Positions 21,001 to 24,000 of a DNA stretch of 35,161 bases are shown piece by piece. The stretch lies in IMG/VR virus record IMGVR_UViG_2700989521_000009, one strand, 5' to 3'. The position numbers were made by a program. This DNA is from a virus. Lineage: Duplodnaviria > Heunggongvirae > Uroviricota > Caudoviricetes. Every line of letters starts with the position of its first letter. Position 1 is the first letter of the stretch.

Positions 21001-24000
21001 TTCTTTTCGCACTCGATGAAGTATCGGCGTATCTGGCGGCCTTTTTCGTTACGTTCAACCATCGCAAGCTCTTTGGCTGTGTCGAGGGTGAGGTGGTAAT
21101 CCTTGCGGCGGCGGCCTGGAGTTTTCGCCAAATTTGGCGAAAATAGAATGTAGTCTAAATTTTCTACGAATCCATACTCGTTTAGCTTGGCCCGTATCCA
21201 GTTAGAAAAATCTTTACCTACCTCTAAAAATCCATGCAAATCACGCGCGTTCACCAGAAGCGTAGGTTCATTTGAGATTGTACCTTCAAACACAGGGATG
21301 AGTTGAGTGGTCATGATGACCTCCTTTGGCTTTTTTCGAGAAATGCCACCACAAAATGTGGTGCCGGGAGGCTCGAAACGGCCCAAAAGATACCGCGGAC
21401 TTATTCCCCTTGCGGGTGTTGTATTCGTCGCCCTCCCGACATTGATCGGGGATGTGACCGCACACTGTGCTATCACTGAATAACAGGCATAAAAAATCCA
21501 ACACTGACGGGGTTGGTTTAATCCGCTTTTGGGAGGTTTTCGAGGCCTCGGCGCGGAGTATAGTCAGTATTGGACGCAGTCGTCAACCATCGCCGTTTCT
21601 TTGGCTGTGTCGAGGGTGAGGTGGTAATCCTTGCGGTTGTGACCGCCTCTACCAGATGTTTGCTTTCCCAAATTGGAAAGCAAAATATAGTCTTGATTTT
21701 CAATGAATTCGTATTCTGAAATGCGATTTGTAATCCATGCCGCAAACACCTTTTTCACGCCTAAAAAAGCATGCAGATCGCGGGCATTGCAGAGTAGGGC
21801 TGTTTCGTTGTCGATAGTGCCGTTGAATACGGGGATGAGTTGATTAGCCATAATTATGACTCCTGACGTTTTAGTATTGACTGCCACCTTAGTGGGGTGG
21901 CGGGCTTCAACTACCGCGTCAGACGGCGGAGCGTATTTCCCGAAAGGGTATTGTATTAGGCTCTCTCGACCCGCCATTGATATGGCGATACCTGTAAACA
22001 GGCATAAAAAAGCCGCAAAGCTATCGGGTGCGGTTGACCGCTGACGTTGTAGTGCGGTCAGTATGCGATAGCTCTGGCAGATTTGTCAAATCGTGCAGTA
22101 ACATCCTTTTCTTCCTTGCCATTTCTCAATGATGACAAAGGGTGGATTCGGATTGGTATTGGGACAAAAGTGAGACACACAAAGCTTTGCATCGGCTTAC
22201 AAAGCTTTGCATGTTTTTCAATGTTGGGACGTGTGAGCGCAGAAATGACGGGCTATCTAATTGATTTTAAACGATACGTAACCAACTTTAAAATCTTTGC
22301 ACGCCAGTTCGCAGGTTTTACAGCCAGTGCAGCGGCTGGAATCGATAAAAAATCCATATTGTGTGGTCATGGGCTACTCCTTAAACCTTTTCGATCTGGA
22401 CAAGATTGCTGTGCGACGGGTTTCCCTTTGCCAGCGGTGAAGGGCGGTGAGAGGTCAGAATATTGATACTGCCGCCGTGATCGACCCGGTCACCAAACAT
22501 ATCCGCTTTAAGCCACGCACCTTGCCCGATGGCGGTAACGCCAGGCAGAATACGCGGAGTCACTTTTGCGGCAATCAGCATTTCTCCATTATTGTTAAAT
22601 ACCCGCACGGTATCGCCATGACGGATACCGCGTGCCTGAGCATCAATGGGGTTGATCCACACCTCTTGTGGGCAGGCCTGCTGTAACACATCAATATTGC
22701 CGTAGCTGGAGTGGGTACGCGCTTTGTAGTGGAAGCCCGTTAACTGCAGTGGATAGGTTTTCCGCAGGGGATCGTCCCAGCCATCAAAACCTGGGGTATA
22801 CGCAGGAAGGGGATGAATAATTTCATCTTTTTTCAATTCCCAGGTATCTGCAATCTTCGCCAGTCGTTCAGAATAAATTTCGATTTTCCCCGAAGGTGTT
22901 TTCAACGGGTTTGCCTGTGGATCTTCACGGAATGCGCGGAAAGCGACGTAGTGTTCTTCCGGGCATTTTTTCTTAAAGATCCCGGTCGTTTTCATCTCCT
23001 CGTAGTCGGGCATCTCAGGGTTACGTTCCTTCGTTTTCGCATGGAGATATTTGATCCATTCATGCTGACTGCGACCTTCAGTAAAGGTTTGATAAACGTC
23101 TGGTCCTAAGCGTTTGGCGACTTCACTCAGCATCCAGTAGATGGGTTTGCGTTCAAATTTTGCTGAGGTTGCGGGTTGGGCGAGGATCACATAGCCCATA
23201 TTCCCTGCAGATTCATGAGAGATAAGGTCTTCTTGCTCTGTTGGCATCAGGTCGGGCAACAGGATATCGCAATACTTAGCCGAGGCCGTCATGAAGTGGT
23301 CAATGCCAACAATCATCTCGCACTTGCTGTCATCCTGAAGCACCTCATGGGTGTGATTGATGTCGCCATGTTGATTGATCAATGTGTTACTGGCGTAGCA
23401 CCATAAAAACTTGATGGGGACATCCAGTTTTTCTTTTCCACGAACACCATCACGGGTCGCGGTCATTTCCGTACCATGGTCGATGGCATCTGTCCATGTA
23501 AAGACGGAAATCTGCGTTTTAACAGGATTCTCAAGCATCGGGAACCATTCTACCCCCAGATCCCAGCTACCTTCGCGTACACCTGAGTTGCCGCCGTTTA
23601 TGCCAACGTTACCGGTGAGAACGGAAAGCATGGCAATAGCGCGGGACGTTTGCTCGCCGTTGGAATGTCGTTGTGGCCCCCAACCCTGACAAATATAAGC
23701 AGGTTTTGCTGAACCGATCTCTCGCGCCAACTGGATAATTTTTTCTGCCGGGATGCTGGTGATTTTTGCTGCCCATTCCGGCGTTTTAGCTATGCCGTCA
23801 GGCCCTTCGCCCAGAATATAGGCTTTATAATGCTCGTTACGTGGTGCGTTGGCGGGCAGCGTTTTTTCATCGTAACCAACACAATATTTGTCGAGAAATG
23901 GCTGATCGACCATGTTTTCAGTAATCAGTACCCAGGCAATCGCACAGGCAGTGCGCCATCGGTGCCAGGGCGAATGGGCAGCCATTCATCTTCACGCCCG

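Follow-up and report, generated by a model that had tools for sequence, protein, structure and literature searches.

Truncation of ynfG at the end of a Stx1a prophage

We analysed a stretch of 35,161 nucleotides (IMG/VR record IMGVR_UViG_2700989521_000009), referred to as a whole as the window, in which prophage DNA runs into a truncated ynfG gene that is followed by ynfF and ynfE. The main segments are the following:

61..22285, plus strand: right-hand 22.2 kb of a φPOC-J13-type Stx1a prophage, corresponding to KJ603229/NC_025434 40475-62699
22286..22370, minus strand: ynfG' (S1742), the 5' 28 codons plus 1 nt, at attR (from the ORF and comparison with K-12)
22381..24806, minus strand: ynfF, a pseudogene owing to a 1-bp deletion near 23949 (two overlapping ORFs; BLAST against K-12)
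24864..27154, minus strand: ynfE, a pseudogene owing to the loss of 136 bp at about 26476-26486 (HSP offset of 136 nt with an 11-nt overlap)

We found that window positions 61-22285 are 100.0% identical, in one piece of 22,225 nt, to positions 40475-62699 of φPOC-J13 (KJ603229/NC_025434, Diegovirus POCJ13), with the end of that record falling at window position 22285; the window spans only the last third of this phage. The prophage part comprises a tail and late region and a 2806-aa ORF (2793 aa as annotated in POCJ13) with LPD5, LPD1, MuF_C and LPD38 domains (Pfam), followed by leftward ea22, DUF551, TraR and ant genes. The last prophage ORFs before the junction encode an AntA/AntB antirepressor (two copies), a TraR/DksA zinc finger protein, DUF4752, Ead/Ea22 and DUF551 proteins, so that no integrase lies at this end, as a reading made from the sequence only had noted. 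The stx1AB genes occupy 20901-22127 of the POCJ13 reference, upstream of the window and beyond an IS2 element, inside which the window begins and which takes up its positions 1-60; this is the sole IS in the window. At this IS2 the prophage is broken, whereas gp57, the tail-fibre adhesin gene, is uninterrupted in the reference; in sequence (100%), host gene and junction, φPOC-J13 and the window are the same. When the upstream part of this genome was sought through contigs encoding gp61, the IS2 interruption was present in none of the four places shown.

On the host side, identity to K-12 ynfG DNA reaches from a point upstream of the ATG up to and including window base 22286, and the sequences are unrelated beyond it. 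The match comprises 28 codons and the first base of codon 29, and the alignment with the uninterrupted gene, which places the prophage/host boundary between 22285 and 22286, bears out the earlier statement that 28 intact codons run into prophage DNA. The minus-strand ORF from 22370 to 22257 reads MTTQYGFFIDSSRCTGCKTCELACKDFK followed by VGYVSFKIN, that is, translation from ynfG' would read through into the phage and stop at 22257 after 37 aa; in RefSeq, the equivalent of ynfG' is a partial "4Fe-4S binding protein" pseudogene. Of 5426 complete E. coli genomes, 79 have the same junction, among them O104:H4, RM10410 and 05-3629.

The locus itself is a known one. In the retrieved passages of Gray et al. 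2014, φPOC-J13 lies in S1742 in all stx1a-positive isolates, and new lysogens of 2457T and MG1655 were shown experimentally to carry it in S1742/ynfG (PMC4193171); those passages name the locus and contain no core sequence. ynfG has also been reported as the site of phage 75/02 and of the RM10410 prophage (PMC5447701, PMC10562709). It is one of the recognised insertion sites of Stx-converting phages. The statement in the sequence-only reading that the ynfEFG region serves lambdoid phages of Shigella as an integration locus is correct for ynfG, according to Gray et al. 2014 and the other two papers. The φPOC-J13/ynfG junction is already published, and nothing new on the locus follows from it.

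A seven-base-pair core shared by four att sites

We compared the junction in the window with attB from K-12, with attP, and with attL from E. coli 05-3629; the attL and int of the window's own prophage fall outside the window. The four sites, and the features that they define in the window, are as follows:

attP: ...GTAACCAA-CTTTAAA-GTTGTTGCTC...; joint sequence AACCAACTTTAAAGTTGTTG; AACCAACTTTAAAGTTGTTGCTC
attB: ...CCAAGAT-CTTTAAA-ATCTTTGCACG...; junction sequence AAGATCTTTAAAATCTT
attR (window): ...GTAACCAA-CTTTAAA-ATCTTTGCACG...
attL: ...CCAAGAT-CTTTAAA-GTTGTTGCTC..., with the int stop codon about 50 bp further on
22281..22285, no strand assigned: phage half-site ACCAA, which with core base C (22286) gives the CAAC arm of the attP palindrome (attP reconstruction, IMG/VR contig, circular 75/02)
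22286..22292, no strand assigned: att common core CTTTAAA (TTTAAAG in ynfG orientation), from the four-way att comparison
22293..22297, no strand assigned: host half-site ATCTT, which makes up half of the attB dyad AAGAT-(7 bp)-ATCTT; a candidate half-site for core-type binding of Int

The 7-bp CTTTAAA is the sole block common to all four sites, and strand exchange must therefore fall inside it. It corresponds to nucleotides 79-85 of ynfG (codons 27-28 plus 1 nt). At attL of 05-3629 the same core is followed by phage DNA that is identical to the start of POCJ13 at 1300 of 1300 positions and encodes a 387-aa integrase, and this attL carries the part of ynfG that is missing from attR. An integrase gene and a second att site had been expected at the far prophage end, together with a direct repeat of the core; both CTTTAAA and int are indeed present at this attL, where int adjoins the 3' part of ynfG, and in POCJ13 int lies at 52..1215, so that a tyrosine integrase is encoded about 50 bp from the core. 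Scanning IMG/VR for the exact pattern revealed the intact attP, as reconstructed, in contig UViG_2579778634_000010 (an exact 30-mer, with int on one side and the ant genes on the other), and in the circular 75/02 record the same attP is formed across the record ends. Upon comparing the 222-nt reconstructed attP with the phage collection, no continuous match was obtained, all six matching records having its two halves at their ends.

Around the core, attB has the dyad AAGAT/ATCTT, within a 17-mer (AAGATTTTAAAGATCTT) that spans nucleotides 74-90 of ynfG, and attP has the dyad CAAC/GTTG, which forms the palindrome CAAC-TTTAAA-GTTG. We suggest that the 7-bp block is the overlap region of the staggered cuts and that these short dyads may serve as core-type Int-binding sites; the sequences would accommodate a 6-bp TTTAAA overlap just as well. 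Upon integration ynfG is cut after codon 28, and it is not reconstituted, since its N-terminal Cys cluster stays behind at attR. Restoration of ynfG by the phage was considered and rejected: an in-frame GTG lies upstream of the core at attL, but its product would lack the first Cys-x2-Cys-x2-Cys-x3-Cys motif, and RefSeq lists a pseudogene. We also rejected the dmsB paralogue as a secondary site, since it has GACTACAAAGATTTG at this position, with 5 of 7 core bases and no dyad.

These reciprocal sites bear on whether the junction might instead be a scar, left by a deletion, IS-mediated or illegitimate, in which the true prophage end was lost together with part of ynfG. The genome is IS-rich and decayed, with IS2 at 1-60, ynfE and ynfF as pseudogenes and ynfC fused to a hipA fragment, all of which would suit such an origin. 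However, no IS sequence lies at or near 22285/22286, where the phage end and ynfG account for the whole junction; the junction agrees base for base with that of the 79 E. coli genomes, and the POCJ13 and 75/02 records have their ends at this very point; the missing part of ynfG is present, together with the same 7-bp core, at the reciprocal attL; and newly made lysogens carry the phage at this locus, according to the retrieved passages of Gray et al. (PMC4193171). We consider a scar extremely improbable, and the alternative of a rearrangement or IS-mediated deletion, which the sequence-only reading had left standing, is refuted by the reciprocal junctions and the absence of an IS at the breakpoint; its other proposal, a genuine prophage/host att junction, is supported by the exact reciprocal att sites. 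We therefore hold with high confidence that window positions 22257-22380 are the attR of a φPOC-J13-type (Sepvirinae, 933W-like) Stx1a-converting prophage, whose own tyrosine integrase inserted it site-specifically into ynfG (S1742 in S. flexneri).

S. flexneri from Hispaniola owes its Shiga toxin to φPOC-J13, and the junction shows that the window belongs to a lysogen of medical relevance. What is added here is the att anatomy at base resolution, with the 7-bp core CTTTAAA, the attB and attP dyads and an invariant P' arm.

The 9-bp inverted repeat and the P' arm

The junction is accompanied by a perfect inverted repeat, which together with the phage-side arm of the site comprises the following features:

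22080..22285, no strand assigned: P' arm of the att site (from alignments)
22175..22214, minus strand: two 14-bp direct repeats ACAAAGCTTTGCAT (22179-22192 and 22199-22212)
22263..22271, no strand assigned: left arm GATTTTAAA of the inverted repeat, phage P'-arm DNA, overlapping a one-mismatch IHF-like match at 22254-22266 (minus strand)
22287..22295, no strand assigned: right arm TTTAAAATC, core bases 2-7 plus three host bases

The arms are 100% complementary over 9 bp and separated by a 15-nt spacer, the right edge of which coincides with the prophage/host boundary. The repeat and its 15-bp spacer exist as described previously, with the arms one base lower than had been given (22263-22271 and 22287-22295). 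In the window we counted 23 seeds of exact 9-mer inverted repeats spaced by at most 30 nt, where first-order Markov shuffles give 5.05 ± 2.5. The chance of such a repeat at one chosen spot of about 40 bp is roughly 0.01, a low value that is nevertheless no compelling argument when the pattern was chosen after inspection.

Tyrosine recombinases use an overlap of 6-8 bp. The sequence-only reading had taken the repeat for a core-type recombinase site, with the crossover in the spacer between the 9-bp arms, and the one feature that agrees with this is the geometry, two inverted arms with a spacer between them that adjoins the junction. The spacer (22272-22286), on the other hand, is phage DNA except for its last base and at 15 bp is about twice the usual overlap, the left arm is absent from attB, and the sole block common to attB, attP, attL and attR is CTTTAAA at 22286-22292, which overlaps the right arm and does not lie between the arms. 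A crossover in the spacer has practically no probability left and is already refuted by the four-way att comparison. Upon examining the individual sites, we observe that attB has only the right arm and attP only the self-complementary TTTAAA...TTTAAA; the complete 9-bp repeat occurs only in attR, and hence it is not a core-type site. We propose that the repeat is a hybrid by-product of recombination, which would arise when the host core/B' side is joined to an A/T-rich P'-arm segment with a second TTTAAA 21 bp away; its exposure as such is a further addition of this analysis.

Two functional roles for the repeat can be weighed against this origin. The repeat, or at least its phage arm, could be a functional att element, be it an extra Int core-type site, an IHF or bend element (H'-like) two helical turns from the core, or an excision element specific to attR. 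The low chance at the chosen spot, the location of the left arm within the invariant P' arm, the spacing of 21 bp between the TTTAAA hexamers and a one-mismatch match to the IHF consensus AATCAATTAGATA that overlaps the left arm all point in this direction. Yet the repeat is complete in attR only, with attP repeating just the self-complementary TTTAAA; the argU-type relative with a visible P' side has no inverted core copy in register; and the left arm is itself invariant, so that its conservation is no test. One-mismatch IHF-like matches number 39 where 36 are expected by chance, an exact IHF consensus, sought in attP, was absent, and we claim no IHF site. Overall, we regard a functional att element as unlikely. 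Still less credible, and in our judgement very improbable, is that at attR the repeat forms a hybrid promoter of sigma-70-like type (TTTAAA-17-TAAAAT, present on both strands), from which transcription would enter the ant genes of the phage or run antisense to ynfG'. A consensus scan gives 9 of 12 matches in both orientations, which is a weak match; the scan yields 4 sites in the region where 1.6 are expected, and this same symmetric sequence accounts for two of them; a stronger promoter-like site (TTGACA-18-CATACT, 10 of 12) lies closer to the ant gene, and a terminator-like hairpin (22214-22175) stands between the repeat and the ant genes.

The P' arm, of about 206 bp, is invariant in six of six ynfG-type phages and prophages compared, with divergence appearing further in, and as all the arms compared are identical the comparison does not rank elements within them. 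S. sonnei phage 75/02 Stx (KF766125), the RM10410 Stx1a prophage, O104:H4 2011C-3493 and 05-3629 share the integrase, the 7-bp core and this arm, but differ in cargo and internal modules, with 93-96% identity over parts, and several of the prophages are without stx. The invariant arm of about 200 bp may carry accessory sites. On the minus strand, 22175..22214 folds into a hairpin with a 17-bp stem followed by CTCACTTTTG (z = -3.25); the hairpin and its direct repeats could act, downstream of int across attP, as a terminator or sib-like element, or else as arm-type sites or operators.

In lambda Int/attP, a 7-bp overlap lies in a 15-bp core, accompanied by arm-type and IHF sites, with sib downstream of int across attP. 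The ynfG system resembles it in having a tyrosine integrase, a short identical core, int beside attP and long conserved arms, as well as a hairpin just past attP downstream of int, in the sib/tI position, for which a sib-like role would be conceivable by analogy. The att sequences of the two systems, in contrast, are unrelated.

Relation of the integrase and its site to DLP12 and argU

The POCJ13 integrase is a tyrosine recombinase (PF00589, E = 1.5e-45) with visible HDLRH and RRYAH motifs, and is identical to K-12 IntD of DLP12 at 335 of 387 positions (87%), with no gaps and 52 differing residues. Its relatives at 80-87% identity adjoin tRNA-Arg(tct); most of the IMG/VR relatives are clipped 3 nt past the int stop, and the eight loci with downstream sequence suffice for argU and not for P' arms. 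When the two systems are aligned in register, the core falls on the argU anticodon loop, the distance from the conserved post-int motif to the core is 39 against 40 nt, in keeping with the same int stop-to-core distance, and the 17-mers have 11-12 of 17 positions in common. Specifically, attB (AAGAT-TTTAAAG-ATCTT) and the argU arm (ACGAC-TTAGAAG-GTCGT) are identical at 11 of 17 positions, and attB has a 5-7-5 geometry in which a 7-nt overlap lies within a 5-bp dyad, as in the anticodon arm. In the K-12 annotation, the DLP12 boundary lies at nucleotide 33 of argU. No tRNA was detected when the attP contig was searched with ARAGORN.

These likenesses place the POCJ13 integrase, as we infer, in the argU-targeting lineage of DLP12 IntD, with the 87% protein identity and the short in-register alignment pointing to an argU ancestry. 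A resemblance of the ynfG site to the anticodon arm of tRNA-Arg(UCU) would plausibly explain the choice of this codon position. We consider it somewhat more probable than the reverse that the ynfG site is a DNA look-alike of that arm, that the φPOC-J13/75-02 Int is a recently retargeted IntD-type argU integrase, and that the P arm is a decayed remnant of the tRNA 3' half. If true, this would be a natural and closely dated case of a tRNA-targeting integrase moving to a protein-coding gene, and IntD and IntPOCJ13 would form a near-identical pair with different specificities, useful for mapping specificity determinants; the link of Int and core to DLP12 IntD/argU could thus serve integrase engineering as a natural specificity-switch pair. 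In the searchable literature we found nothing relevant on the att core of POCJ13 or on an argU/DLP12 link, which is not proof of their being unpublished.

The two systems share dyad arms around a 7-nt centre, and the ynfG site would appear to work like the anticodon-loop class and to descend from it, although by its target it is not a member. The target consists of codons 27-29 of ynfG, a protein-coding gene, in place of a tRNA gene, and the core is TTTAAAG as opposed to TTAGAAG. Unlike in the DLP12 IntD/argU system, the phage has no functional 3' copy of its target and restores no 3' part, and ynfG is consequently destroyed and left truncated.

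The prophage-ynfG junction is a known attachment site

We found that the junction is an already known, experimentally characterised phage attachment junction, and the sequence-only reading was correct in observing it. Window positions 61-22285 are 100.0% identical, in a single piece, to positions 40475-62699 of the Stx1a-converting Shigella phage POCJ13 (φPOC-J13; KJ603229 / NC_025434), with the phage record ending exactly at window position 22285. In the reference layout int lies at 52..1215, stx1AB at 20901-22127, and the right end is the late, tail and ant region; since the window matches this right end and int is at the opposite end, it covers the third of the prophage that is farthest from int, together with attR. 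The last genes before the junction encode two AntA/AntB antirepressors, a TraR/DksA zinc-finger protein, DUF4752, Ead/Ea22 and DUF551, with no integrase among them, as had been noted. On the host side, DNA alignment to K-12 ynfG shows identity from upstream of the ATG to window base 22286, with one synonymous C/T difference only, and similarity ends there, which bears out the earlier claim that the ynfG frame is matched for 28 codons before prophage DNA begins. The gene is truncated by the integration and restored by nothing.

22370 (start) to 22257 (stop), minus strand: truncated ynfG ORF, MTTQYGFFIDSSRCTGCKTCELACKDFK plus nine unrelated residues

That ynfG is a phage integration locus in Shigella, as the sequence-only reading had proposed, is confirmed by Gray et al. 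2014 (PMC4193171) and by a report of the same site for S. sonnei phage 75/02 (PMC5447701). Gray et al. named φPOC-J13 and, by whole-genome sequencing and PCR, placed it in S1742, the S. flexneri ynfG, in every stx1a-positive S. flexneri isolate. S1742/ynfG was again the insertion locus when S. flexneri 2457T and E. coli MG1655 were newly lysogenised, and they concluded that integration is site-specific. Two further reports give this site, one for the RM10410 Stx1a prophage of E. coli (PMC10562709) and one for a clinical STEC. A 1.2-kb junction-spanning query, at a coverage of at least 80%, was present in 79 of 5426 complete E. coli genomes, O104:H4 outbreak strains included.

Common core of the attachment sites

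We compared attB from K-12, attR from the window and attL from E. coli 05-3629, all in window orientation.

attB (K-12): ...CCGGGCCAAGAT CTTTAAA ATCTTTGCACGCC...
attR (window): ...ACGTAACCAA CTTTAAA ATCTTTGCACGCC...
attL (E. coli 05-3629): ...CCGGGCCAAGAT CTTTAAA GTTGTTGCTCACC...

All three share one block only, the 7-bp CTTTAAA at 22286-22292 (ynfG nt 79-85). Within about 50 bp, the 05-3629 sequence passes from the 3' part of ynfG through the core to the gene of a 387-aa integrase (PF00589, E = 1.5e-45), and on the phage side its attL matches the start of POCJ13 at 1300/1300 positions. The predicted attP, ...GTAACCAA CTTTAAA GTTGTTGCTC..., holds a perfect 14-bp palindrome, CAACTTTAAAGTTG; IMG/VR contig UViG_2579778634_000010 has an exact 30-mer spanning it, between int and the ant genes, and the GenBank entry for S. 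sonnei phage 75/02, a circular record, closes through the same sequence. The matching repeat at the other prophage end, named earlier as a test of the site, is therefore present as CTTTAAA at attL of 05-3629, and the attP joint is found as well. An IS-mediated origin of the junction, the alternative raised from the sequence, is excluded because the reciprocal att junctions share CTTTAAA. The 7-bp block is flanked by dyads, AAGAT/ATCTT in attB (perfect 5-7-5, ynfG nt 74-90) and CAAC/GTTG in attP. The final ~206 bp of the phage arm (22080-22285) do not differ among the six sequences compared, which diverge further in.

The 9-bp inverted repeat

22263-22271: left arm, GATTTTAAA
22287-22295: right arm, TTTAAAATC, after a 15-nt spacer

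The 9-bp inverted repeat proposed as a core-type recombinase site exists, although it had been placed one base too far right. In the window, exact 9-mer inverted repeats with a short spacer number 23 seeds, where a Markov-shuffled window gives about five; such a repeat at one chosen spot is unlikely (chance about 0.01, by arithmetic), which is not decisive. The right arm consists of core bases 2-7 plus host bases ATC and the left arm is P'-arm DNA, the phage DNA left of the core, so attB has one arm only, and attP keeps only the self-complementary TTTAAA twice, 21 bp apart. The full repeat arises in attR alone. The proposed role is thus not supported, and the two arms cannot be the core-type sites on either side of the crossover, the repeat being confined to the recombinant attR. 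A one-mismatch IHF-like match overlaps the left arm, such matches occurring at chance frequency; this arm may yet play a part in the arm architecture, though we consider a functional role improbable.

Repeats, probable promoter and genes of the phage arm

22175-22214, minus strand: two 14-bp direct repeats ACAAAGCTTTGCAT, 20 bp apart, each with palindrome CAAAGCTTTG
22060-22089, minus strand: best sigma-70-like match in the P' arm, TTGACA-18-CATACT (10/12), toward the ant genes
21564-21977, minus strand: att-proximal ant gene, a truncated duplicate with the AntA domain only (RefSeq: equivalent missing C-terminus)
20691-21314: full-length Ant (AntA + P22_AR_C), adjoining the truncated duplicate
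21355-21440 and 21891-21975, minus strand: sRNA-Xcc1 (RF02221), two matches at Rfam gathering score (74.5 and 53 bits)
8951-17371, plus strand: giant ORF of 2806 aa (2793 aa as annotated) with LPD5, LPD1, MuF_C and LPD38 domains
1-60: IS2 terminal sequence, 100% identical to thousands of plasmid copies; adjacent CDS in pWR501 annotated as IS2 transposase

The direct repeats fold as a hairpin with a 17-bp stem, followed by CTCACTTTTG. In the circular phage it sits downstream of int, some 70-110 nt beyond the core, a position that by analogy would be sib/tI-like; in the prophage, downstream of ynfG', the hairpin could keep host transcription from reading through into the ant genes. CTTTGCAT occurs once more, in the P arm on the int side (+68). 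The host core and B' side, CTTTAAAATCTTTGCA (22286-22301), matches the P'-arm repeat unit CTTACAAAGCTTTGCA (22176-22191 / 22196-22211) at 13/16 positions, and this resemblance of attB may be due to chance. The sigma-70-like match is likely the promoter of the leftward ant/ea22 operon. The two sRNA-Xcc1 matches immediately precede the annotated starts of the two AntA/AntB antirepressor genes, one match per gene, which suggests that phage ant genes are accompanied by a conserved element, a structured 5' leader or an sRNA. The giant ORF directly precedes the leftward ea22/ant block.

At the other end of the window, IS2 abuts POCJ13 position 40475 within gp57 (tail-fibre adhesin), a gene uninterrupted in the reference, so that by comparison this copy of the prophage is broken by an IS; it may be defective or rearranged. 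An IS2-interrupted contig with the int end of this copy was sought among gp61-encoding loci and was not found in the four listed.

Integrase lineage and choice of target

The POCJ13 integrase aligns without gaps to IntD from DLP12, a cryptic prophage of K-12, with 335/387 identical positions (87%), and its relatives at 80-87% identity in IMG/VR directly adjoin argU, the tRNA-Arg(tct) gene. The ATTGAATTnnAATG motif is conserved downstream of int, at 39 nt from the core in POCJ13 compared with 40 nt in DLP12. The DNA alignment puts POCJ13 TTTAAAG in exact register with the argU anticodon loop TTAGAAG, and ACAAC/GTTGG with its stem, ACGAC/GTCGT; the DLP12 boundary annotated in K-12 is argU nt 33, within the anticodon loop, and in L095, an argU-type relative at 82% identity, tRNA-like sequence extends only as far as that loop. 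The ynfG attB 17-mer shares 11/17 positions with the argU arm. We infer that the integrase lineage may have switched its target from argU to a sequence inside ynfG that resembles the anticodon arm, a move for which we found no statement in the literature searched. The dmsB paralogue, considered as a secondary site, has neither core nor dyad.

State of the host operon

ynfF has lost 1 bp near 23949 and ynfE 136 bp near 26476-26486, at a breakpoint where the two ynfE alignments overlap by 11 nt. The two selenate-reductase genes are now pseudogenes, as is typical of gene decay in Shigella, and because of these deletions the ynf operon of this genome was already dead regardless of the integration. 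ynfC is cut after about 135 codons (window ~28167-28890) and fused directly to a 3' hipA fragment, with no IS at the joint, followed by ydeP, ydeO and ydeN. Compared with K-12, this joint implies a large deletion, of roughly 65 kb by map positions, that includes the Qin prophage region.
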